Sequence record: DRR378314_409 | Strand: one strand, 5' to 3' | Length of the DNA: 64,000 nucleotides | In this document: positions 20,735-33,383 of the stretch, piece after piece | Layout of the letters: each line of letters begins with the position of its first letter | Position numbering within the stretch: the stretch's first letter is position 1 | Program-made: the position numbers and the translations under genes | The notes under the pieces: model-generated | The model's database searches: none | The model's input: the letters and a program-made list of their open reading frames with translations, nothing else | What the model was told of the DNA's origin: nothing

Positions 20735-22351
20735 CTACCACTCCCCAATGCCGGGGGAGATGTTTCGCTGGGTGGACGGGGTTCGCGCGCTTTGTTTGGG
20801 CGGTGGGGCCGCCCGGTGGGCGCAGTTTTTCCGATCGCAGAGCCGACAGGTGATGCCAGCGGGCATCACGGTTTTGGGCGTTTCCAGATCCATGCCATCT
20901 GCATAAATCAGCCGGTTTGCATGAGAAATTTCACACCCAATACTGATGGCATAATGGCGCTTTGGGTATTTGAAGCCGAGGCTGGGCTTGCTGACGGTGC
21001 GGGCGATGGAGAAGTATTGATCGCCATCCGGCATTTCGGAAATCTGGGTGCACAGTGTGCCGGGCGTCAGTAGAGAGGCGTGGACGACCCACCGGGGGCA
21101 GGCGCTGCCATATCGCGGAATGCGTAGGCCCGATGCGCTAAACCGTTTGGAGATATTCCCGGCGATATCCGTGCGGATGAGATGAAAGGGGATGCCGCTT
21201 TTTTCCGGCTTTTGCAAGGTCGTCAGGCGGTGGCAGATTTGCTCGTAACTGGCGCCAAACTGCTGTTGCAGAAGCTCGATATCATAGCGCTGTTCCTCGG
21301 CCGCAGAATACAGCATGTCATAGGGAAGGACGCAGGCGCCGGCGAAATAGTTAGCCAGTGCTGCCATTCCTTTTTCATGCGCCATGTCCGGTAGCAGTTC
21401 TGATTTCTCGACAAGATCGCTTAGCAAGTCATGGAACTGTAATTGGCCGATCAGAAGTGCCAGGTGAAATTTGACACTGCTGGGGGGCAGGGAGCGGGAT
21501 AAGATCAGGTGCTGCCGTTCTTCATCAAAGAGAGAGATTTCTGTGTCATGGCGATCTTTTTCTGCAAATTCCACTGTTACATTTAGCTGCTTGAGAAGGT
21601 AATCGCTCAAAGCTTGAATGTTGGGTGCAAACGGGATGTCGAGACGGGCAATCAGATCGGTTGCAGCAGTTTCGATTTCCTCAAAGTAATTGTTGTTATG
21701 CTGAATAAAGTCGGTAACCGCATCATCGGGGGAGACGCTGATGGTCGATCCGGCTTCTTTGTCCATGCCCACAAAGCCGAGCATTTCATTGATGGTTTCT
21801 GTCAGGGTCGTGCTGTCATTTACAACAATCTGCAAAAATTCCTGTCGTTGCTGGGGATCCATATCGGCATTGTCGCGCATGATTTCTGTCAGCGACATGA
21901 TGGACGTAACAAGCGTGCGAAGGCGAAAAGAACTGTCAGCAAGGATGCTGTCCTGGGACAGGCGTTCGCGGAGATATTGCAGGTCTGTGGTTGCGGTTTT
22001 GTATCCCTGATACAGTTTGGAAATGGCGTGGGCAATATCCTGATGATCCCCAATAAAACGGGAAAGGGACGTTTCCGAGGGGAGGCTGGAATCCAGCAGT
22101 GGATCCTGTAGTACTTCGCGGATGTCAGCAAGAAGCTGCCCATCCTGTTCTTTTGCAAAGATCAGCGGATCAACTTTCAGTATCTGGCTGACCTTCAGCA
22201 ACAGAGGGACTGTCAGGTCCCGCCGGTCATGTTCGATCAGATTAAGGTAGCTCGCTGAAATTCCAAGCTCCGCCGCCAGGTCAACCTGCGAGAAACGTTT
22301 GTCGATGCGGAGCCGCCGAAGTTTGTTTCCGAGAAACGTCTGCTTTGCCAA
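20735..22351 (-). CDS. Short-chain fatty acyl-CoA regulator (ScfR/RamB/PrpR family, XRE HTH) with inserted pseudo-DHp segment
   Basis: XRE HTH LGISASYLNLIEHDRR; LANYFAGA, SYEQICHRL.TLQ, R.D.AGNISKRFS, ACPRW; C-terminal CRLCDRKNCAHR; TTG start. Confidence 0.92.
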   Translation of the reverse strand: MAKQTFLGNKLRRLRIDKRFSQVDLAAELGISASYLNLIEHDRRDLTVPLLLKVSQILKVDPLIFAKEQDGQLLADIREVLQDPLLDSSLPSETSLSRFIGDHQDIAHAISKLYQGYKTATTDLQYLRERLSQDSILADSSFRLRTLVTSIMSLTEIMRDNADMDPQQRQEFLQIVVNDSTTLTETINEMLGFVGMDKEAGSTISVSPDDAVTDFIQHNNNYFEEIETAATDLIARLDIPFAPNIQALSDYLLKQLNVTVEFAEKDRHDTEISLFDEERQHLILSRSLPPSSVKFHLALLIGQLQFHDLLSDLVEKSELLPDMAHEKGMAALANYFAGACVLPYDMLYSAAEEQRYDIELLQQQFGASYEQICHRLTTLQKPEKSGIPFHLIRTDIAGNISKRFSASGLRIPRYGSACPRWVVHASLLTPGTLCTQISEMPDGDQYFSIARTVSKPSLGFKYPKRHYAISIGCEISHANRLIYADGMDLETPKTVMPAGITCRLCDRKNCAHRAAPPPKQSARTPSTQRNISPGIGEW

Positions 22352-22352
22352 C

Positions 22353-22378
22353 TTTACAAACCTTTACAAATTTACAAA
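22353..22378. promoter_or_regulatory. Triple TTTACAAA repeat, candidate ScfR operator
   Basis: TTTACAAA at 22353, 22363 and 22371, next to the regulator start codon; one base from the TTTGCAAA repeat known for ScfR-family PccR/PrpR. Confidence 0.7.
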
Positions 22379-22542
22379 AATTTATTTTCAATATTAACAT
22401 TAAAAAATGATTAAAATCAATGTTTTATTGGATTTGCTTATTAAAGTGTGAAATTTTTACAATTCCAAAGCGATTATGAACATGCTGTTCCTCCTGTGTG
22501 TGGTGGAGGCAAGCAATCGCAGGACTTAAAGGGAGGAACAAG

Positions 22543-23889
22543 ATGACAGATAAGCGTAAATTTGATTTCTCAAGACGTGGCCTTTTAAAGGCGGGTGCCG
22601 GTGCAGGTCTCGTGGCTGCGGCCCCAACCTTCATCATGAAGAATGCATGGGCGAATGAGTTTAGAAATAATCCAGGCAATGCCAGCTCTATCAAGCTGGG
22701 CTTTAACGTGCCGCAAACCGGCCCTTATTCAGAAGAGGGTAAAGATGAGCTGCGTGCCTTTAAGCTGGCGGTTAAGCATCTGAACGGTGAAGGCGATGGC
22801 GGTATGCTCAACACGTTCAAGCCTTCCAGCCTGAAAGGCAATGGTGTTCTTGGCAAGAAAGTGGAATATGCAACGGGTGATACCCAGACCAAATCTGATG
22901 CCGCGCGTGCATCTGCCAAGCGCCTGATCGAAAAAGAACAGGTTCTGATGGTCTCTGGTGGGTCCTCTTCCGGTGTGGCGATTGCGGTGCAGTCCCTTTG
23001 CCAGGAAGAAGGCGTTGTCTTCATGGCCGGCCTGACCCATTCCAATGATACAACAGGTAAAGACAAGCGCCGGTATGGTTTCCGTCACTTCTTTAATGCC
23101 TATATGTCCGGTCGGGCGCTGGGTCCAGTGCTGGAGAAGGAATATGGCAAAGAGCGCCGCGCCTACCATTTGACAGCCGATTATACATGGGGCTGGACAC
23201 AGGAAGAATCCATTAAAGCGACAACGGAAGAGCTGGGTTGGCAAACCACAGCAACTGTCAAAACGCCAGTTGGTGCCGGTGACTTCTCTCAGTATATCAC
23301 CCCGGTTCTGAACTCTGGTGCTGATGTGTTGATCCTGAACCATTATGGTAAGGATATGATCAACTCGCTGAGTCAGGCGGTTCAGTTCGGTCTGCGGGAA
23401 AAACAGGTCAACGGGAAAAATTTCGAAATTGTTGTGCCGCTATTCTCTCGTTTGATGGCCCAGGGTGCTGGTGAAGCCATTAAGGGTATTCTTGGAACTA
23501 CCAACTGGAACTGGTCGCTGCAGGATGATGGCTCTCAGGCTTTCGTAAAATCCTTCGGTGCAGAATATGGCGCGCCGCCATCCATGGCCGCCCATACCTG
23601 CTACGTGCAGACACTGCTTTATGCAAATGCCTGTGAAATGGCCGGAACCTTCTATCCACCGGAAGTCATCAAGGCGCTGGAAGGCTTCAGCTTCGATGGA
23701 ATGGGCAATGGTCCAACCGAATATCGGGCTGAGGATCACCAGTGCTTTAAAGATGTGCTTGTGGTGCGCGGTAACGAAAACCCAACCAGCCAGTTTGACT
23801 TGCTGAACGTGGAACAGATCGTTCCGCGCTCTCAGGTTGAGTATGACTGGAAGATCTTTGGAGGCGAATTAGGCCCTTATAAAGTCTAA
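22543..23889 (+). CDS. LIV-type ABC transporter substrate-binding protein with Tat signal
   Basis: SRRGLLK twin-arginine motif; P.TG.Y...G, GGSSSGVA, ADYTWG periplasmic-binding motifs; GGGAGG RBS. Confidence 0.9.
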   Translation: MTDKRKFDFSRRGLLKAGAGAGLVAAAPTFIMKNAWANEFRNNPGNASSIKLGFNVPQTGPYSEEGKDELRAFKLAVKHLNGEGDGGMLNTFKPSSLKGNGVLGKKVEYATGDTQTKSDAARASAKRLIEKEQVLMVSGGSSSGVAIAVQSLCQEEGVVFMAGLTHSNDTTGKDKRRYGFRHFFNAYMSGRALGPVLEKEYGKERRAYHLTADYTWGWTQEESIKATTEELGWQTTATVKTPVGAGDFSQYITPVLNSGADVLILNHYGKDMINSLSQAVQFGLREKQVNGKNFEIVVPLFSRLMAQGAGEAIKGILGTTNWNWSLQDDGSQAFVKSFGAEYGAPPSMAAHTCYVQTLLYANACEMAGTFYPPEVIKALEGFSFDGMGNGPTEYRAEDHQCFKDVLVVRGNENPTSQFDLLNVEQIVPRSQVEYDWKIFGGELGPYKV

Positions 23890-23900
23890 TTCAGCTTTTT

Positions 23901-23941
23901 GGCGGGTCGGCGATGCTGCGGAAGGTCGACCCGTCCTTTTT
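23901..23941 (+). terminator. Hairpin with U-tract after the substrate-binding protein gene
   Basis: GGCGGGTCGGC pairs with GTCGACCCGTC (2 G.U), then CTTTTT. Confidence 0.65.
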
Positions 23942-23995
23942 CCAGAGTTTCGAAAAGGCGTTTGATCAGGCCTTTTCATCAGTGGGATAGATGTA

Positions 23996-25012
23996 ATGGA
24001 TGCTGTATTTCTTCAAATACTGAACGGGTTGGACAAGGGGGCGGCTTATGCGCTGATTGCGCTGGGACTGACCCTCGTTTTTGGGACCCTTGGTATTGTG
24101 AATTTCGCCCATGGTGCCCTGTTTATGCTGGGCGCCTTCTGTGCGGTTTCCTTCAATAAATTGATGTTATTCTCAACCAAGGTTGAAGACACCAATGTAA
24201 CGCTGTTCAAGGCGTTTAAGGAAAAGCCTTATTTGGAAATCTGGTTCCCCGACTGGGGTCCTTTATTGATCCAGTATTCGGTGCCGCTATCTATACTACT
24301 GGCCATACCCGTGATGATCCTGGTGGGATATGTCATGGAAAGGGGCCTGATCAAGCATTTCTACAAACGGCCCCATGCCGAACAGATTCTGGTTACATTT
24401 GGTTTAGCGATCGTTCTACAGGAAATTATCAAGGTCGTCTTTGGGGCGAACCCGATCCCGCAAACAGCGCCTGATATCCTTTCCGGAAGTGCGCCGATCG
24501 GTAGCTGGATCGGGCTTGGCGAAGCTGTTGTCTACCCCTGGTGGCGACTGGTTTACCTGGTGTTCTCCGGCTTGATTATCTTTGGGGTTTTCTCCTTTTT
24601 GCAATTTACCACCTACGGGATGGTGGTGCGGGCCGGTATGCGCGATCGAGAAACGGTCGGGTTGCTGGGGATTAATATTCAAAAGCGCTTCACCATTGTC
24701 TTTGCCATGGCAACCGTTGTCGCCGGGCTTGCCGGGGTGATGTATACGCCGATTTTGCCACCCGATTATCATATGGGTATGGATTTCCTCGTTCTGTCCT
24801 TCGTTGTTGTGGTTGTAGGGGGCATGGGCTCCCTCGGCGGTGCGGTGATGGCAGGTTTCCTTCTGGGGATTGTGCAGTCATTCGCGTCCATGACCGAGGT
24901 CAAATCGATCCTGCCAGGTATTGACCAGATTATTATTTACCTGGTCGCTGTTATTATTTTGTTGGTGCTGCCCCGGGGTCTGTTGGGCCGTACCGGTGTG
25001 ATGGATGATTAA
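23996..25012 (+). CDS. LivH-like ABC permease
   Basis: [26 protein letters not shown]. Confidence 0.92.
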
Positions 25013-26162
25013 CATGAAATTTGCTTCCATGAACGATATCACCCGGTTCGTCCTCTTTGCGGTAATTATTCTGGCAATGCCGCTGTGGCTGGAACCGCTG
25101 GGTGGCAATTATCCGGATCTTCTACAGAAATTTGCGATCTACGGCATTTTTGCAATTGGCTTTAACATCCTCTTTGGGTTGACGGGGTATCTCTCCTTTG
25201 GCCATGCAGCATTTCTGGGGGTTGGATCCTACGCTGCAGTCTGGTCATTTAAATTATTCACGATGAATGCCGTTCCGGCGGTCATTTTTGGAATGCTCTT
25301 TGCCGGTCTTCTCGCCGCTGCAATCGGGTTTTTGAGCTTACGCCGATCAGGGATTTATTTCTCAATTCTGACGCTGGCCTTTGCTCAGATGTCTTATAAT
25401 CTTGCCTATTCAGTTTTAACGCCGATCACCAATGGCGAGACAGGCCTGCAACTCTCGCAGCAGGATCCACGCATTATCGATAGCCTGTTTATTGAGGCTG
25501 GATCAGGGTTGCCGTCGACCAATCTGTTTGGCTTGAAGATGAGCGGTTATCCGGGCTTTTACTTTTGCGCCGTGCTGTTGATCATCTGTTTCTATATTTC
25601 ACTTCGGATTTTCCGGTCTCCATTCGGCTTGATGCTCAGGGGTATCAAATCAAATCAGAACCGAATGCGTTATACCGGTCTGAATACCCGTCCTTATATG
25701 CTGACTGCCTTTATCATTTCAGGCATGTATGCCGGATTGGCAGGCTCCCTTCTGGCGGTGACAGATCCGCTTGCCGGCGCGGAGCGCATGCAGTGGACAG
25801 CATCCGGTGAGGTGGTCTTGATGACCATTCTGGGAGGCGTTGGCACGTTGGTTGGCCCCATGCTGGGTGCCGGTCTGATCAAGTATTTTGAAAATATCTT
25901 CTCTGCCTTTAACAACAATGTGCTGATGGAGATGTTCTCGTTCCTGCCAGATCCAGTAGCGGAAGTACTGGTTCCCGTCGTCGGGCTTTTTGTTGGCGGT
26001 GGCTGGCATCTGACCCTTGGGCTGTTATTCATGATTATCGTGATCTTTCTGCCCGGCGGAATTGTTGAAGGCCTTTCAAAATTGACGAACTGGGTCAGTG
26101 GTGCCCGCAAGAAAAACGGTATGGGCGGGACGACCTCCCCCCAAGATCAACCGGGTGAATAG
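25005..26162 (+). CDS. LivM-like ABC permease
   Basis: [37 protein letters not shown]. Confidence 0.92.
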
Positions 26163-26174
26163 GGAGTAAAGCGT

Positions 26175-26933
26175 ATGAATGATCTGGTGCTTCACCTGGA
26201 TAATATCCAAAAAAGTTTTGGCGGCCTGAGTGCACTGTCTGATGTTAATCTGCAAGTGGAAGAGGGTACAACACATGCCATCATCGGCCCGAACGGCGCT
26301 GGCAAATCCACGCTTTTGAATGTCTGTATCGGGCGTTTGAAACCGGACTCTGGTCATGTCACCTTTCAGGGGCAGGAACTGATCGGGCGGGAGCCTCATG
26401 AGATTGCCCAAATGGGGGTTGCCCGGGTGTTCCAGACACCAGAAATTTTCCCGGAAATGTCATTGCTTGAAAATGTCATGCTGCCCGCTTTTTCCAAGCG
26501 GGATGGGGCGTTCAAGATGAACGGCTACAGCCAGCTAGCCGGACAGAAAGATATTCGGGGCGAGGCCGAACATACCCTTGAGGATGTCGGCCTGCAGGAG
26601 CAAATGATGCAGGAAGCCGGAAGTCTGTCGCGCGGAGATAAGCGACGCCTGGAACTGGCGATGTGTCTGATCCTGCGGCCACGGTTGCTCCTCTTGGATG
26701 AGCCGACCGCCGGAATGTCCCGGCATGATACGAACCAGACAATTGACCTGCTTAAAAAGATCAAGAGCCGCGGGATGACGAAGGTCATTATCGAGCATGA
26801 CATGCATGTGGTTTTCAGTCTTGCGGATAAGGTGAGCGTGTTGGCCCGTGGGCAAATCATTGCCGGCGGCAAACCAGAAGATGTTCGCGAAGATCCGAAA
26901 GTCAAAGAAGCCTATCTGGGAGGAGCTCACTGA
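26175..26933 (+). CDS. LivG-like ABC ATP-binding protein
   Basis: IIGPNGAGKS, LLLDEPTAG, IIEHDM. Confidence 0.93.
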   Translation: MNDLVLHLDNIQKSFGGLSALSDVNLQVEEGTTHAIIGPNGAGKSTLLNVCIGRLKPDSGHVTFQGQELIGREPHEIAQMGVARVFQTPEIFPEMSLLENVMLPAFSKRDGAFKMNGYSQLAGQKDIRGEAEHTLEDVGLQEQMMQEAGSLSRGDKRRLELAMCLILRPRLLLLDEPTAGMSRHDTNQTIDLLKKIKSRGMTKVIIEHDMHVVFSLADKVSVLARGQIIAGGKPEDVREDPKVKEAYLGGAH

Positions 26934-27649
26934 TGAGCGAAAACACAGCCTTTTTCAGTGTCCGCGATATCCACGCCTATTATGGCGAGTCCTATATTGT
27001 TCAGGGGGTTTCCCTTGATGTTGAGGAGGGGGAGATCGTTGCCTTGCTCGGGCGGAATGGGGCGGGAAAAACCTCGACCCTTCGCGCGTTGGCACGGGTA
27101 GATGATCCGCAATTGACCAAGGGCGAGATTTATTTGAACGGCCAAGCGGTTCATGAGATGAAAAGCTATCAGGCGGCCCAGGCCGGCATTCAACTGGTGC
27201 CAGAGGATCGCCGGATCATTGGCGGACTGACCGTTGAGGAAAACCTGATCCTGTCACAGGTCGCCGAGCCAAGAGGTTGGGAGATTGAAAAGATTTATGA
27301 TCATTTCCCCCGGTTGGGAGAGCGGCGTAATCAGGAGGCGACAACCATGTCTGGCGGAGAGCAGCAAATGCTCGCCGTTGCACGGGCGTTGGCCCGGGAT
27401 CTGAAAATCCTCTTTCTTGATGAGCCGTATGAGGGGCTTGCCCCGGTGATTGTGGAAGAGATTGAGCGGATCCTGATGGAAGTGCGCAAGTTGGGTATCA
27501 CAACAATTATTGTTGAGCAAAATGCCGTTGCTGCCCTTCAGCTTGCGGATAAAGCGCTTATTCTCGACATGGGGAAAATTGCTTTTCGCGGGACAGCGAA
27601 AGAAGTTCTGGATGATAAGGAATTGCGTCACGAATATTTGGCAATCTGA
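26933..27649 (+). CDS. LivF-like ABC ATP-binding protein
   Basis: LLGRNGAGKT, MSGGEQQML, LDEPYEGLAP, VEQN. Confidence 0.93.
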   Translation: MSENTAFFSVRDIHAYYGESYIVQGVSLDVEEGEIVALLGRNGAGKTSTLRALARVDDPQLTKGEIYLNGQAVHEMKSYQAAQAGIQLVPEDRRIIGGLTVEENLILSQVAEPRGWEIEKIYDHFPRLGERRNQEATTMSGGEQQMLAVARALARDLKILFLDEPYEGLAPVIVEEIERILMEVRKLGITTIIVEQNAVAALQLADKALILDMGKIAFRGTAKEVLDDKELRHEYLAI

Positions 27650-27808
27650 CAATTTATCAATGAATTCAAAGGTGACGATAATTCTATTATTCGTCCAGAG
27701 TGTTTGACAAACCATGTCGAATTGATACGAATAGACGCAGAATAGGTCAAAAATGCGAGAATCGGGAACAACCTGAACACGCGTTAAAGGGAATCAGGGA
27801 AACAGGAA

Positions 27809-29749
27809 ATGTCCACGAACGAACTATATCCAGTGTCTGACGAAGTTGCCAAATCCGCCTGGGTTGACAACGCCAAATACGAAGAAATGTACAAGGCTTC
27901 CATCGATGATCCGGAAGCTTTCTGGGCCGAGCATGGAAAACGCATTGACTGGATAAAGCCTTACACCAAGGTGAAGGATGTTTCCTTTGATGCGAATGAT
28001 CTGCATATCCGATGGTTCCATGATGGATCGTTGAATGTCAGTGCCAATTGCATCGACCGTCATTTGGAAACCAAGGGCGATCAGGCCGCCATTATCTGGG
28101 AGGGGGATGAGCCCACGGATGATAAAACCCTGACCTATCGGGAGTTGCATCGGGAGGTTTGTAAACTTTCCAACGCCATGAAATCAAACGGCGTTAAAAA
28201 GGGTGATCGCGTTACCATTTACATGCCGATGATTGTCGAAGCGGCGATTGCCATGTTGGCCTGCACCCGTATCGGAGCCGTTCATTCCGTTGTGTTCGGC
28301 GGTTTTTCCCCGGATGCACTTGCCGGACGGATCAATGATTGCGAGTCAACTTGTGTCATCACTGCTGATGAAGGTGTGCGGGGTGGGCGAATTATCCCGC
28401 TTAAAGTCAATACCGACGAGGCGCTGGAACATTGCCCTGATTGTAAAACCTGTATCGTGGTTAAACATACCGGCAACGACATCAACTGGGTTGAAGGGCG
28501 CGATCTTTGGTATCATGAGATTGTCGGTGATGCGTCTGAAGATTGCCCGCCAGAAGAAATGAATGCGGAAGATCCGCTGTTTATTCTGTATACGTCCGGC
28601 TCAACCGGTCAGCCCAAAGGTGTGATGCATACAACTGGCGGCTACTTGGTCTATACGTCCATGACCCATCAGTATGTGTTTGATTATAAAGATGGTGATA
28701 TTTACTGGTGCACGGCTGATGTGGGCTGGGTTACCGGGCATAGCTATATTCTTTATGGTCCGCTTGCCAATGGCGCGACAACCTTGATGTTTGAAGGGGT
28801 TCCCAATTATCCAACAATGTCCCGGTTCTGGGATGTGTGTGACAAACATAAGGTCAATATATTCTATACCGCGCCGACGGCCATTCGGGCATTGATGCAG
28901 GCGGGGGATGAACCTGTTAAATCCACATCACGTAAATCCATTCGTCTGTTGGGATCCGTTGGAGAGCCGATCAACCCCGAAGCATGGAGATGGTATCACG
29001 AGGTAGTCGGTGACAAGAGATGTCCGATCGTTGATACCTGGTGGCAGACGGAAACCGGCGGGATCCTGATTACACCTTTGCCAGGGGCGACGGACCTGAA
29101 ACCGGGGTCGGCAACCCGGCCTTTCTTTGGAATTGAGCCGATTATGGTGGATAATGACGGTCAGGTTTTGACCGGTGAATGTGAAGGCGTACTTTGCATC
29201 AAGGATAGCTGGCCCGGTCAGATGCGGACCGTTTATGGTGATCATGAACGCTTTATCCAGACTTATTTCTCCAATTTCCCGGGCAAGTATTTCTCCGGTG
29301 ATGGGGCGCGGCGTGATGCGGATGGATATTACTGGATCACCGGTCGGGTTGATGATGTGATCAACGTTTCCGGTCATCGGATGGGCACTGCCGAAGTGGA
29401 AAGCGCCCTTGTCGCACATCCAAAAGTTTCAGAGGCTGCCGTTGTCGGATATCCGCATGATATCAAGGGACAGGGTATCTATGCCTATGTCACCTTGGGA
29501 TTAGGGGCGGAGCCGACTGATGAGCTGCGCAAAGAGCTGGTTGCATGGGTTCGCCATGAAATCGGCCCGATTGCATCCCCGGATTTGATCCAGTGGGCAC
29601 CGGGGCTTCCCAAAACCCGATCTGGAAAAATCATGCGGCGGATTTTGCGGAAAGTCGCTGAGAATGACTTTAAAACATTGGGCGATACATCAACATTGGC
29701 AGACCCGGCTGTGGTTGAGGAATTGATCGAAAACCGGATGAACCGCTAG
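27809..29749 (+). CDS. acs: Acetyl-CoA synthetase (AMP-forming)
   Basis: [39 protein letters not shown] (acetylation Lys). Confidence 0.97.
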
Positions 29750-29822
29750 GGGCATTCGGGCCCGATACCGGGTATATATGTGTCCGGGTCTTATCAGACT
29801 TGGCTAAACCTTGGGTAATAAG

Positions 29823-29848
29823 CTACACTCACTGATGTGTGAGTGTAG
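29823..29848. other. Perfect 10-bp inverted repeat between acs and the receiver gene (terminator or operator)
   Basis: CTACACTCAC-TGATGT-GTGAGTGTAG. Confidence 0.6.
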
Positions 29849-29950
29849 TGGCTTTTGTGCTGACCGTAAATTTGTACAAAATCAATCTAATGACAAATTG
29901 AGGTCAGGGTTAAAGTCATGTCGCTGTGTCTTGGGAGGGAACGCGACAGA

Positions 29951-30328
29951 ATGTCAAATACTGTGTTGGTTGTGGAGGACGAGCCAAATATCGTCCTCTC
30001 TCTGCAATTTATCATGCGCCAGTCCGGATATACCGTTCGGGTTGCATCCGATGGAGAGCAGGCGTTGCGGGCGATCGAGGAATATGTTCCAGATCTGGTT
30101 CTGCTGGATATTATGCTGCCCAAACGGGATGGCTTTGCTGTTTGTAGCGAAATACGGAACAACCCGGCATGCAAGAATGTGAAGATTATCATGCTATCCG
30201 CAAAAAGCCGGGAGGCCGATCGAGAAAAGGCGCTGAAGCTGGGGGCAGACCGGTTTGTAACCAAACCTTTTTCAACTCGAGAGCTGTCGGATACCGCCAA
30301 GCAGCTTTTGAAGGTTGAGCTGTCTTAA
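29951..30328 (+). CDS. Single-domain response regulator (receiver only)
   Basis: VLVVEDE, DLVLLD (phospho-Asp), MLSA, KPF; 125 aa with no output domain. Confidence 0.93.
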   Translation: MSNTVLVVEDEPNIVLSLQFIMRQSGYTVRVASDGEQALRAIEEYVPDLVLLDIMLPKRDGFAVCSEIRNNPACKNVKIIMLSAKSREADREKALKLGADRFVTKPFSTRELSDTAKQLLKVELS

Positions 30329-30358
30329 CCGCAGCCACCGGATCTGGAGGGTACGGTT

Positions 30359-30637
30359 ATGCAAAGGACAGGACGAAAAAAAGAATGGGCCATTCTAGCG
30401 TTTTGTGTGTTTCTTCTTGGGATCCTGCCGCCACTCATTCAGGTATTTGATCGCTCAGACCTGATTTTTGGTTTTCCGCTTAGTTTTCTATATTTATTTG
30501 GCTTCTGGGCGTTGATGATCGTTTTTGTGGCGATCGGCGCCCGCAGGCGACATCCGAATGGCGATAAACCTTTGGCGATGCCAACGCCGTCAAATGATGC
30601 GCTGGACCAGCAGAAGGAGAAACTGGATGTCCAGTAG
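30359..30637 (+). CDS. Small two-TM membrane protein accompanying the SLC5 domain
   Basis: GGAGG RBS; two hydrophobic helices with FGFP..F.Y.F..W motif; overlaps the start of the kinase gene. Confidence 0.8.
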   Translation: MQRTGRKKEWAILAFCVFLLGILPPLIQVFDRSDLIFGFPLSFLYLFGFWALMIVFVAIGARRRHPNGDKPLAMPTPSNDALDQQKEKLDVQ

Positions 30638-33383
30638 TGTGGTCATTACCGTCTCCTTTCTATATCTGGGGTTGTTGTTTGCGATCGCGCATTATGTAGA
30701 TAGTCGCAGCAGCGTGAAGAACTTTCTGTCCCGTAATCCCTACATTTATACTCTGTCGATTGCCGTTTTCTGTACATCCTGGACCTATTACGGCAGCGTG
30801 GGACGGGCGGCCACTTCCGGGCTGGATTTCCTTCCCATTTATTTGGGTCCAACGCTGGTTTTTGTGCTCTGGTCTTTTCTCTGGATCAAAATCATCCGGA
30901 TCTGTAAGCAAAACCGGATTACCTCGATCGCTGACTTTATTGCCTCTCGATATGGTAAACGCTCGGCACTGGGTGGGTTGGTGACGATCATCGCTGTTGT
31001 CGGAACCATGCCTTATATTTCCCTGCAACTGAAATCCATTGCGACCAGCTTTCGCATTCTGATTACCTATTCCGGTGGCCAAACCATTCCGGAAATCCCG
31101 ATCGAGCCAATTTTCTTTCTCGATACAACCTTGATCGTGGCTATTGCTCTTGCCCTTTTTGCAATCCTTTTCGGCACCCGTCATATCGATGCGAGCGAGC
31201 ATCATGAGGGACTGGTTGCCGCCATTGCGTTTGAATCTTTGGTGAAGTTGTTGGCGTTCCTGTGCGTGGGGGTGTTTGTCACATAGGGTATTTTTGATGG
31301 CTTTGCCGACATCTTTCAGCGGGCGTCCGTGGATACTGAATTGTCGTCGTTATTTACCATTTCAAATAACGTGGATTACAGTCGATGGATCACGATGACC
31401 ATTTTGTCCATGGCCGCGATTATCTGCTTGCCGCGGCAGTTTTATATAACCGCCGTGGAAAACCCCGACGAAGGGTATTTGCGAACTACAGCCTGGCTGT
31501 TTCCGGCGTATCTACTGGTTATCAATCTATTCGTATTGCCGATCGCTCTTGGGGGACGGCTGGCGTTTCTGGATGCACCTGTGGATGCGGATATGTTCGT
31601 TCTTACGGTTCCTCTTTATTATGACCATGGGTTTATTTCCCTTATTGCTTTTTTAGGTGGTTTGTCGGCGGCGACCTCCATGGTGATTGTGGCGTCAATT
31701 GCGTTGGCTACGATGGTTTGTAATGACCTTGTGATGCCTCTTTTGTTGCGGTGGGGCTGGTTCAAGGTGACAAAAAATGCGGAATTGACCGGGCTATTGC
31801 TGGCCATTCGGCGGGCAAGTATTCTGCTGATCCTGATCCTTGGATATGGCTATTACAGGTTCGCCAGCGAGTCTTATTCGCTCGTGACAATTGGTCTTGT
31901 CTCTTTTGCTGCCGCGGCACAATTCGCCCCCGTCATTATTGGCGGAATTTTTTGGCGAAACGGAACATTCAGTGGCGCGCTTGTTGGCCTCTCCCTTGGT
32001 TTCATGGCCTGGCTATACACGTTGTTGCTACCCTCACTGGCTCAGTCGGGTTGGCTGCCCATCAGCTTTATTGAGCAGGGGCTTTTTGGGATTACCTGGT
32101 TGAAGCCATACGCGCTTTTCGGTCTGGACGGGTTTGACCGTCTGACACATGCCATGATCTGGAGCATGCTTGTAAATATTGGCGCTTATTGGGTGATCTC
32201 TTTGTTGAGCCACCAAAGCGCCATTGAACGGATTCAATCCCGGCTGTTTGTTGATGTGTTTAAGCTGACGGAAAAAGGCGGGGATAGCAGCTATTGGCGC
32301 GGGACGGTAACCGTTGGAGAATTACAGGCATTGGTCGGCCGGTTTGTTGGTGTCAACCGGGTCGATGAAGCCTTCCGCCAGTTCGCTGAAGAGCGAATGC
32401 TGCATATTCGGAAAAGTCAGGTTGTGGATGCTGCCTTGCTCGAATATGCCGAAAGGCTTTTGGCTGGTTCCATCGGTTCAGCAACGGCTCGGGTGCTGAT
32501 CGGGTCCATTGTAAAAGGGGACATCGTAAGCCTGGATGAGGTTTATAAGATCCTGGATGAAACCAGTCAGGTAATTGAATATAGCCATCAATTAGAACAG
32601 AAATCAGCGGAACTAGAGGAAGCGACCCAACAACTGCAAATGGCCAATGCCCGACTGAAAGAGCTGGATGGTTTGAAGGATGACTTTTTGTCCATGGTGA
32701 GCCATGAGCTGCGCACACCGCTGACCAGCCTTCGCGCCTTTGGAGAAATCCTGTCAGATAACCCGCAGGTTTCTGCAAAAGAGAGAGCTCAGTTTCTGGG
32801 GATCATTATCACGGAAAGTGAACGACTAACGCGTCTGATCGACCAATTGTTGGATCTGGCCAAAATGGAAGCCGGGCGAATGGATTGGTCGCTGGAGAAT
32901 GTCGACCTGTCGGATACCATCGAAGCGGCGGTGTCCGCGCTGAACGGGTTGATCAAGGAAAAGGATATCCAGCTTCATCTTGAGGTGCAGTCGGATCTTC
33001 CAGATATTCGGGCGGATCGGGATCAACTGATCCAGGTGATTGTTAATCTGGTGTCCAACGCCATCAAATTCTGTGATCAGAATAACGGGGAAATTCGGTT
33101 GCAGGCGGGTTATGACGGTGGAGAAATCTGGGTCTCGGTTCGGGATAATGGGCTGGGTATTCCTGCCCCCTTGAAAGAGAAGATTTTTGAGCGCTTTCAT
33201 CAGACTTTTTCTGCGCTTGGCCATAAGCCGCAGGGATCTGGGTTGGGGCTGGCCATCTGCCGGCAGATCGTGACCTATCTGGGAGGGCGGATCTGGGCTG
33301 AAAACAGCAATCAGGGTGGGGCCGTTTTCACCTTCACTTTGCCGATAGAGGGGGCAGACGCCCTGCCAGCAACCGGTGACTAG
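30627..33383 (+). pseudogene. SLC5 (Na+/solute symporter)-STAC-HisKA-HATPase sensor kinase (CrbS/CbrA-like) interrupted by in-frame TAG at 31284-31286
   Basis: AAGGAG RBS and ATG 30627; YTLS.AV.CTSWTYYGSVG, IADFIASRYGK, AIAFESLVKL; the same frame continues after TAG (GIFDGFADIF); STAC-like ERLLAGSIGSATAR; SHELRTP; N, G1 and G2 boxes intact. Confidence 0.85.

Follow-up and report, generated by a model that had tools for sequence, protein, structure and literature searches.

How does a two-component system reach DNA when the only response regulator encoded beside its sensor kinase is a bare receiver? The question is raised by a locus at positions 20735-33383 of DRR378314_409, a stretch of 64,000 nucleotides (hereafter, the window) and whose source organism is a Sneathiella. 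The locus encodes an SLC5-type sensor histidine kinase, a stand-alone receiver and an XRE transcription factor of the ScfR family, a family that Carter and Alber reportedly defined in 2015. The transcription factor carries an insert resembling the dimerisation and histidine phosphotransfer (DHp) domain of histidine kinases. An earlier interpretation made from the DNA letters, here called the sequence-only reading, had proposed that the three proteins form a relay in which this insert receives the signal, and had noted that the sole response regulator of the locus lacks an output domain; indeed, the only Pfam Response_reg match in the locus is that receiver (29918-30328). With a probability of roughly 55%, we consider that the SLC5 kinase signals to the stand-alone receiver, and the receiver to the ScfR regulator by way of a DHp-derived hairpin.

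The sequence-only reading had aligned residues 133-193 of the regulator, without gaps, to the DHp of the co-located kinase and had counted 21 identities in 61 positions by hand. Both peptides translate as quoted, and a comparison by BLASTP gave the same gapless alignment, with 21 identical and 37 positive positions among 59 (E 1e-12, for a single comparison), so the count was right. The translations also bear out that the phospho-accepting His of the kinase (32703) faces Phe142 of the regulator (21926-21928), that the Glu following the His faces Arg, and that T, S, E and I occupy positions H+7, H+8, H+14 and H+15, numbered from the acceptor His, in regulator and kinase alike. The search of the insert region with kinase profiles, which the earlier reading had recommended, detected it: Pfam HisKA matched residues 137-193 with an E of 6e-5 and 23.4 bits, under the gathering score of 26.9, and NCBIfam kinase models matched residues 135-200 (PnpS, E 8e-9; WalK, 1.3e-4; VanS, 2.1e-4; PhoR, 1.6e-3). 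A profile built from 36 inserts and compared with the Protein Data Bank (PDB) found HK853 as the best match (2C2A/3DGE, E 2.5e-6) and also DivL (4Q20, E 4e-4). In the AlphaFold2 (AF2) model of the regulator, the insert consists of two helices, residues 135-160 and 166-194, with a short connecting loop, and the block means of the predicted local distance difference test (pLDDT) are 72-85 across residues 141-190. Judged by alignment, profile and predicted fold, these comparisons show the insert to be a true DHp homologue. The HATPase_c domain was absent, by Pfam, from the regulator and from all of the 102 proteins scanned (the window protein and 101 relatives). An ordinary ScfR 'DII' linker was also considered as an identity for the insert and was rejected, as the alignment of insert-less relatives leaves a gap of about 60 residues here, and the stretch is passed over by the RamB model. 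UniRef names the regulator orthologue of Sneathiella chinensis (P0020) 'histidine kinase', a name that appears to be automatic and triggered by the insert.

We found that the insert specifically resembles the DHp of the module kinase, i.e., the SLC5 kinase associated with it, as shown by the ranking of similarity scores. When the window insert was compared with five whole genomes, the co-located SLC5 kinase was the best non-self match in all five, at 35.2-38.2 bits, compared with 15.3-27.6 bits for the next-best kinase. Across 38 genomes, the insert profile gave 52-70 bits for module kinases and at most 42.3 bits for any other kinase. In two of the genomes, 28 other HisKA kinases were scored; 15 reached 10.0-30.2 bits and 13 had no match, against 54.2 and 58.0 bits for the module kinases. 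The possibility that the insert is no closer to the kinase of its locus than to random HisKA domains, on which the earlier reading would have fallen, is contradicted by these scores, in which module kinases surpass all other kinases. Beyond the N-terminal boundary of Pfam HisKA, the likeness continues in the coiled coil, with R at H-12, L at H-11 and D at H-8 in common. In 55 aligned insert-kinase pairs, which we used for all pair comparisons, D at H-8, T at H+7, E at H+14, I at H+15, F at H+30 and L at H+41 were identical in at least 89%.

To place the insert within the ScfR family, loci were scanned in one genome per species, giving 80 ScfR loci. The insert was present in 42 of these, 28 of Sneathiella type and 14 from other Alphaproteobacteria, the latter including Inquilinus, Aestuariispira, Curvivirga, Ferruginivarius, Roseospirillum, Thalassospira, a metagenome-assembled genome (MAG) of Devosia and other MAGs. 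Searched against 1.84 billion representative proteins, the profile of 36 inserts had 606 matches at E <= 1e-10; nearly all of the best 150 of these lie at about residues 120-200 of proteins of 400-540 amino acids or of fragments, and the insert is carried by at least about 150 clusters at 50% identity. Among the 102 scanned proteins (the 101 relatives being matches of at least 400 amino acids), HTH_3 was found in 96 and ScfRs in 92. In a tree of the ScfR core (FastTree, insert columns removed, root not known), 60 insert-bearing and 38 insert-less proteins were split by one branch with a support of 100, which corresponds to one change. By this tree, the insert is shown to have a single origin and to mark one clade of ScfR regulators. 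A tree of 64 columns likewise placed 52 distinct inserts on one side of a branch, with a value of 99 in the Shimodaira-Hasegawa-like approximate likelihood ratio test (SH-aLRT), and a grouping of inserts and module kinases together against other kinases was not rejected by the approximately unbiased test (p-AU 0.87), few columns being available. Recurrent or recent copying from neighbouring kinases was rejected: all inserts group in a single clade, and an insert resembles its own kinase no more closely than it does the kinases of other genomes. These sequences are most simply read as a single ancient event, in which the DHp of this kinase family was copied into an ScfR gene and the genes were inherited together thereafter.

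The sequence-only reading had also asked for a test, across genomes, of the co-occurrence of insert-bearing ScfR regulators with an SLC5 kinase and a single receiver, and this association was exceptionless in the genomes examined. Receiver and kinase end the transporter operon in 21 of the 28 Sneathiella-type loci, and in the remaining seven the contig is no longer than 12.4 kb and stops before receiver and kinase would be reached. For five of those seven, a different contig from the assembly carries the kinase, with the receiver ahead of it in four, and two (L008 and L025) were left out. The pair directly follows the regulator on the same strand in 12 of the 14 other insert-bearing loci, and lies elsewhere in the genome for L036 and L079. 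All 40 insert-bearing genomes searched have an SLC5 kinase of about 900 amino acids, 33 within the locus and 7 elsewhere, and a receiver directly precedes the kinase in six of the latter seven. Conversely, receiver and SLC5 kinase were found in the flanks of none of the 38 insert-less ScfR loci. Sixteen of the 38 genomes behind these loci have an SLC5 kinase of about 900 amino acids (40-45% identical), preceded by a single receiver in every one of those loci that reaches far enough, and all 16 carry a second, insert-bearing ScfR (62-87 bits). In 15 of them this second ScfR shares a contig with the kinase, at a distance of about 8 kb or less; in G066 the two are on separate contigs. Genome G036 adds an insert-bearing regulator and a receiver at a contig end, and the remaining 21 have neither the kinase of about 900 amino acids nor an insert-bearing ScfR; two intermediate matches of the insert profile in those 21 genomes were a kinase fragment and an ordinary kinase. 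SLC5 kinases of hybrid length (open frames of 1163-1249 amino acids, similar in length to CrbS), which the insert profile does not hit, occur in eight of the 38 genomes (G029-G063), and the five genomes that have only this type lack an insert-bearing ScfR. The usual gene order is a divergent binding protein gene followed, on the other side, by regulator, receiver and kinase; the Sneathiella order differs, receiver and kinase being shifted about 7.5 kb, behind acs.

The description of the insert as a His-less mimic of a DHp holds for Sneathiella and not for the family in general. Phe142 is invariant in 40 Sneathiella regulators, as are many other insert residues, and the insert is among the best conserved parts of these 40 proteins. 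Over 101 family representatives, the acceptor position is His in 96, Tyr in two, and Gln, Asn and Phe in one each; within the aligned pairs, 23 of 29 non-Sneathiella proteins have His, and one non-Sneathiella subclade has Tyr, Asn or Gln. With His kept in 96 of 101 relatives, transfer of phosphate to the regulator has to be taken seriously as an alternative outside Sneathiella. The loss of His on at least two occasions, in lineages that kept the three genes and the remainder of the domain, argues for docking as the common denominator. The residues following the acceptor are changed as well. The window motif is F-R-L-R-T instead of H-E/D-x-x-T/N, and E or D at H+1 occurs in 34 of 101 relatives. 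In the aligned pairs, 54 of 55 inserts lack E/D at H+1 and all 55 lack Pro at H+5, and H+4 is Thr in 34, Ser in 17 and Ala in 4, the window having Thr; T or S stands at H+4 in 96 of the 101 representatives. In HisKA proteins, as treated in the part of PMC3510030 drawn on here, E/D at H+1 is required for kinase activity only, and T/N at H+4 for phosphatase activity only.

Outside the core, the best-kept positions of the 101 representatives form one stripe on helix 1, made up of H0, T/S at H+4, T/A at H+7, A/S at H+8, R at H+10, S at H+11 and I at H+15. This stripe includes positions at which EnvZ co-evolves with its regulator in specificity. Counted from His243 as the acceptor of EnvZ, H+7, H+14 and H+15 fall within the EnvZ specificity set. 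That set comprises T250, R251, L254, A255, E257, M258 and others (PMC2991266). On this mapping, the stripe would be the face that kinases use for docking their regulators.

The active site of the receiver is shown by its conservation to be intact. Across 28 orthologues there is no variation in the acidic pocket (E20/D21), Asp64 or Lys116, the Thr/Ser position is T or S in all 28, and the chains end after helix 5; the receivers retain the phosphorylation residues and also the aromatic switch position. In the window protein, the domain spans residues 16-126 with no output domain, and Met12 is the likely true start. The receiver frames of relatives mostly encode 119-147 amino acids, a few being longer owing to upstream start candidates. 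No second receiver was found in the module, in the window or in the related loci. The module kinase, of about 900-950 amino acids, has no receiver domain of its own. It had been called an SLC5-STAC kinase, of which the SLC5 part stands: residues 23-493 of an orthologue (L082) match the SLC5 domain of CbrA (PDB 10ED) with an E of 1.5e-62, and the N-terminal piece of the window kinase matches NCBIfam MctP (E 6.5e-9), while Pfam SSF was not detected in the kinase. A STAC domain was not demonstrated by sequence, as the match to 10ED ends at residue 456 of the 606-residue chain, before the STAC part, and Pfam STAC gave no match. An in-frame TAG at codon 254 of 953 (31284-31286) breaks the window kinase. 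In 15 orthologues, matched by residue pattern, this site is Tyr (TAT or TAC) in 13 and Phe in two. Related kinases have no internal stop in any of 28 genomes, with open frames of 890-975 amino acids in 27, the 28th kinase being cut by a contig end. Because all 28 orthologues are uninterrupted, the break is specific to the window sequence; it reflects a genuine nonsense mutation or else an error in base calling.

The ScfR core of the regulator is likewise shown, by domain and fold comparison, to be intact. Pfam identified HTH_3 at residues 11-63, Peptidase_M78 at 254-377 (E 1.5e-16) and ScfRs at 378-532 (E 9.4e-59). The AF2 model, a monomer with a mean pLDDT of 78.7 and a predicted template modelling score (pTM) of 0.59, matched PrpR of Mycobacterium tuberculosis (6CYY) in Foldseek with an E of 4e-29 over 310 columns at 36% identity, and a TM(target) of 0.88. 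The NCBIfam RamB equivalog (NF038139) scored 419.6 bits in two pieces, under its cut-off of 700, and by this measure the regulator is a member of a RamB-related subfamily, not RamB proper. Residues 201-533 correspond to positions 133-464 of the RamB model, which skips residues of about 133-200; because the model matches in two pieces around them, these residues are an insertion relative to RamB. The regulator has the PrpR-type C-X2-C-X4-C motif (C502/C505/C510) and a fourth Cys, C418, of which C418, C502 and C510 are invariant and C505 is at least 90% conserved in 44 sequences. In PrpR, the motif and a fourth Cys ligate a [4Fe-4S] cluster, and the segment between the helix-turn-helix (HTH) domain and the sensor core is flexible (PMC6765138, as far as drawn on here). 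We noted that members of a Rhodobacterales type (L139-L141) are short, with 414-430 amino acids. The one that was scanned, L139, keeps HTH_3, the insert and ScfRs, and has no Peptidase_M78 match; therefore, its middle domain is reduced or diverged.

The mechanism that we favour would run as follows. The SLC5-type membrane kinase would phosphorylate the stand-alone receiver, and the receiver would act on the ScfR-family regulator through the hairpin, which the ancestor of the regulator clade would have gained once from the DHp of this kinase family, in a place between the DNA-binding domain and the acyl-CoA/[4Fe-4S] sensor core. In Sneathiella, the hairpin would be a docking site only, in the manner of DivL and DivK, because Phe142 is not phosphorylatable. 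Binding of the phosphorylated receiver would alter the geometry or the oligomeric state of the adjacent HTH domains; because the insert lies where PrpR is flexible, a rearrangement of the hairpin dimer could reposition them. The target of these HTH domains would be the TTTACAAA repeats in the divergent promoter, and this promoter would control the operon of ABC (ATP-binding cassette) transporter, acs, receiver and kinase as well as the regulator itself. We infer the phosphotransfer from kinase to receiver, the docking of the receiver on the hairpin, the effect on DNA binding, and a monocarboxylate as the signal. Since the regulator retains the Cys pattern of the acyl-CoA-sensing PrpR, the integration of two inputs, carboxylate and acyl-CoA, by one regulator is plausible.

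Several observations weigh against this relay. The AF2 model is a monomer with a pTM of 0.59, and its pLDDT falls below 50 at residues 126-133 and 195-204, which flank the insert. The sequence-only reading had asked whether the specificity residues of insert and kinase co-vary, and in the 55 pairs no covariation of insert and cognate kinase was detected, in a test of low power as the kinase DHp is nearly invariant. Insert-kinase identity was not higher for cognate pairs (0.32-0.33) than for non-cognate pairs (0.30-0.34) or, over all other genomes and clades, for their kinases (0.26-0.37). At the specificity position H+12, the kinase has Phe in 55 of 55 cases, whereas the insert is variable and shares it in 9% of pairs. 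The helix-1 identities stressed by the earlier reading survive in part. E at H+14 and I/L at H+15 are also found in unrelated HisKA kinases, as general HisKA features, and because they are common there only T at H+7 is at all telling. The combination of E at H+14 and I at H+15 was considered as proof of a shared specificity and was rejected, as unrelated kinases of the same genomes carry E and I/L/V. Pure docking leaves the conserved acceptor His of 96 among 101 relatives unexplained. All of the co-occurrence may trace to one ancient event, and for that reason the many genomes are not independent observations; control of the receiver-kinase operon by the regulator could by itself be enough to maintain the linkage. 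Finally, with the in-frame stop in the kinase, the relay may be inactive in this genome, or the base call may be wrong.

The retained His leads to a rival explanation. In a His-Asp-His phosphorelay, the receiver would hand its phosphoryl group to the DHp His of the regulator, as in Spo0B or ChpT, and the phosphorylated His would switch the regulator; the Phe form of Sneathiella would be a derived variant, phospho-blind or used for docking only. This would fit the acceptor His (96 of 101 representatives and 23 of 29 non-Sneathiella aligned proteins), the T/S at H+4 in 96 of 101, the descent of the insert from a genuine phosphotransfer domain, and a single-domain receiver as the partner, as Spo0F is for Spo0B. 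However, it is inapplicable to the window protein, since Phe142 is invariant in the 40 Sneathiella proteins, and Y/N/Q replaces His in one other subclade; the three genes and the rest of the domain are conserved in these His-less lineages, so the phosphorylated His is not indispensable. There is also no downstream receiver, and Pro at H+5 is absent in 55 of 55 inserts. For these reasons, we regard the phosphorelay as unlikely to be the general explanation. A broader version, in which the family would be a new two-component output class of transcription factors with a DHp of their own, may be entertained tentatively: the His-bearing majority would pass phosphate from kinase His to receiver Asp to transcription-factor His, and Sneathiella (Phe) and the Tyr/Asn/Gln subclade would be natural variants with pure DivL-like docking. 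If so, this would be the first two-component phosphorelay ending on a histidine inside a DNA-binding protein, and the same protein would also read acyl-CoA via its [4Fe-4S] core.

The nearest relative of the insert is the kinase's own DHp, preceding coiled coil included, which would also suit a heteromer of the two, in which the regulator hairpin pairs with the kinase DHp and tethers the regulator to the membrane or inhibits the kinase, with the receiver separate. Hydrophobic positions are indeed shared (L at H-5 in 67%, I at H+15 in 100%, L at H+41 in 96% and F at H+30 in 89% of pairs), but overall identity is about 33% and no higher in cognate than in non-cognate pairs, and the second helix has little in common, 10 of the 11 positions from H+43 to H+53 being identical in 0-13% of pairs, with the exception of H+49 at 42%. 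Moreover, the strictly co-inherited bare receiver would be left without an output, and the conserved polar stripe including the His position is unnecessary for bundle packing. We consider the heteromer doubtful, and about equally so the simpler proposal that the hairpin is a four-helix-bundle interface for the HTH domains, with receiver and kinase merely (co-)regulated and the signal elsewhere. DHp domains are dimerisation domains, the co-occurrence may stem from one ancestral arrangement, and covariation was not found, all of which dimerisation alone would accommodate. Yet it leaves unexplained the conserved His (96/101), T/S at H+4, T/A at H+7 and S at H+11, and why the donor was the DHp of this kinase family and no other; the trio persists despite the rearrangement of about 7.5 kb in Sneathiella and the unlinking in L036 and L079, and the kinase partner would have no output domain. 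Lastly, the hairpin might dephosphorylate the receiver, as an isolated HisKA DHp can, and as a phosphatase or phosphate sink set the lifetime of the signal. The H+4 residue needed for phosphatase activity only is Thr in the window and in 34 of 55 inserts, and the E/D at H+1 needed for kinase activity only is lost in 54 of 55 (roles as given in the part of PMC3510030 drawn on). However, H+4 is often Ser (17/55) or Ala (4/55), Ser not being among the residues that this part of PMC3510030 reports to work, and a pure phosphatase would be oddly placed in a transcription factor. We find this role quite improbable as the sole function of the hairpin; docking and dephosphorylation are compatible, not exclusive.

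The preferred relay through receiver docking can be compared with known systems. Spo0B receives its phosphoryl group from the single-domain Spo0F. Spo0B and ChpT resemble the proposed arrangement in having a DHp-type four-helix-bundle domain that lacks kinase activity and is fed by a receiver, with the His present in 96 of 101 of our relatives. They differ in that they pass phosphate to a DNA-binding response regulator, whereas the module has no further receiver, its domain lies inside the DNA-binding protein, and the window protein has Phe for the acceptor His. RetS is a membrane hybrid kinase homologue that acts on GacS via DHp-DHp contacts. As proposed here, RetS-GacS too uses a DHp for protein-protein regulation and not for its own phosphorylation; unlike RetS, the protein in question is a transcription factor, and a heteromer is the rival reading only. 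The Caulobacter pseudokinase DivL has Tyr for His and binds phosphorylated DivK via the regulator-docking face, and its Y550F variant still binds (PMC4211667). The window regulator shares with DivL-DivK a HisKA-type DHp with a non-phosphorylatable aromatic residue for His (Phe142), a single-domain receiver as partner, a proposed information flow from receiver to DHp, and the profile match to 4Q20 (E 4e-4). DivL has PAS and catalytic (CA) domains and acts on the kinase CckA, whereas here the DHp stands alone in a DNA-binding protein, the proposed output is transcription, and most relatives keep His; by its lack of PAS and CA domains, the regulator is not a member of the DivL family.

The kinase resembles those of CrbS/CrbR, CbrA/CbrB and RpuS/RpuR in its CbrA-homologous SLC5 membrane domain followed by HisKA and HATPase_c. 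CrbS/R controls acs (PMC5436829, PMC5715377), and the Sneathiella kinase is likewise linked to acs. CrbS and RpuS of Sinorhizobium fredii are hybrid kinases with a C-terminal receiver and LuxR-type DNA-binding partners (PMC9100948), whereas the module kinase has no receiver and its partner is a bare receiver. In the parts of PMC9100948, PMC5436829 and PMC5715377 drawn on here, the characterised SLC5/STAC systems use LuxR- or NtrC-type regulators. The regulator shares with PrpR, RamB and PccR of the ScfR family an XRE HTH, an IrrE-like domain, a GAF-like/ScfRs C-terminus and the four-Cys pattern; unlike them, it has a DHp hairpin of about 65 residues within the flexible 'DII' linker and belongs to a separate clade, whose insert-bearing regulators are always coupled to a two-component pair.

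To our knowledge, two-component signalling is thought to reach DNA by DNA-binding response regulators or by partner switches. In full-text literature, with the founding ScfR paper and supplements outside its scope, we found described neither an XRE/ScfR regulator with a HisKA/DHp domain nor an SLC5 kinase working through such a regulator. These results suggest a hitherto undescribed route from a two-component system to DNA, in which a DNA-binding protein of an unrelated, metabolite-sensing family appears to have been wired to the pathway by gaining the receiver-docking domain of the kinase. If true, any transcription factor could, in evolution, be connected to a kinase simply by copying the DHp, the regulator would be a natural one-protein integrator of external carboxylate and internal acyl-CoA state, and an output would be assigned to widespread orphan single-domain receivers of marine and soil Alphaproteobacteria. 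The natural series of His, Phe, Tyr, Asn and Gln at the acceptor position offers a ready-made experiment on phosphotransfer versus docking.

Table 1. Features of the locus in the window, with their positions, strand and the evidence for each.
Feature	Position	Strand	Evidence
ScfR-family (PrpR/RamB-like) XRE transcription factor, 538 amino acids, with DHp-like insert	20735..22351	-	Pfam, NCBIfam, AF2/Foldseek
HTH_3 domain of regulator, residues 11-63	22163..22321	-	Pfam, E 2e-9
Helical hairpin of regulator, DHp (HisKA)-derived by homology, residues 120-203	21743..21994	-	BLASTP, Pfam, NCBIfam, AF2
Hairpin core as delimited by the sequence-only reading, residues 133-193	21773-21955	-	
Phe142 of regulator, in place of the phospho-His	21926-21928	-	
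IrrE/M78-like and ScfRs C-terminal sensor core, Cys418 and Cys502-X2-Cys505-X4-Cys510	20756..21592	-	Pfam, Foldseek, motif
Three TTTACAAA repeats directly upstream of regulator start, divergent promoter region	22353..22378	+	
Inverted repeat TGTGAAA-N-TTTTACA close to start of ABC transporter operon	22447..22461	+	
HAAT-type ABC transporter, five genes	22498..27649	+	Pfam Peripla_BP_6, BPD_transp_2 x2, ABC_tran x2
ABC transporter binding protein	22498-23889	+	Pfam Peripla_BP_6
ABC transporter permeases	23996-25012, 25005-26162	+	Pfam BPD_transp_2 x2
ABC transporter ATPases	26175-26933, 26933-27649	+	Pfam ABC_tran x2
Acetate--CoA ligase (acs)	27809..29749	+	NCBIfam PRK00174 (1116 bits) and TIGR02188 (1051 bits), both above cut-off
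Single-domain response regulator, receiver only, 136 amino acids	29918..30328	+	Pfam Response_reg, residues 16-126, E 8.9e-32
SLC5-type sensor histidine kinase, 953 codons, TAG at 31284-31286	30525..33383	+	HisKA, E 5.8e-20; HATPase_c, E 1.9e-28
Kinase DHp, with its His at 32703-32705	32676-32858	+	

The operon divergent from the regulator holds the ABC transporter, acs, receiver and SLC5 kinase in that order (Table 1). The protein closest to the regulator, labelled S. limimaris at its source, has 89% identity over the insert region. NCBIfam gave the transporter distant Urt/Liv matches only, all below cut-off. Among the 41 related insert-bearing loci with a binding protein of the divergent transporter, all except two encode one that is 60-93% identical, and outside Sneathiella the regulator adjoining it has 26-41% identity; across these related loci, the ABC transporter is the most constant partner of the module. 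One contig, titled as a Pseudomonas marincola MAG (L004), has a Sneathiella-type regulator (66%) and binding protein (85%), and its assignment to Pseudomonas is probably a binning error.

The motif TTTACAAA has six matches in the 64-kb window versus 2.05 expected, and three of the six lie at 22353-22378. Upstream repeats of a TTGTAAA type also accompany the regulator in most other loci compared, with all three clades represented. The TTTACAAA repeats are one base away from TTTGCAAA, which we take to be the motif of the ScfR family. By their placement and recurrence, the repeats at 22353-22378 are likely operators of the regulator. The element TGTGAAA-N-TTTTACA is conserved in the Sneathiella loci compared, and may be a second, candidate operator.

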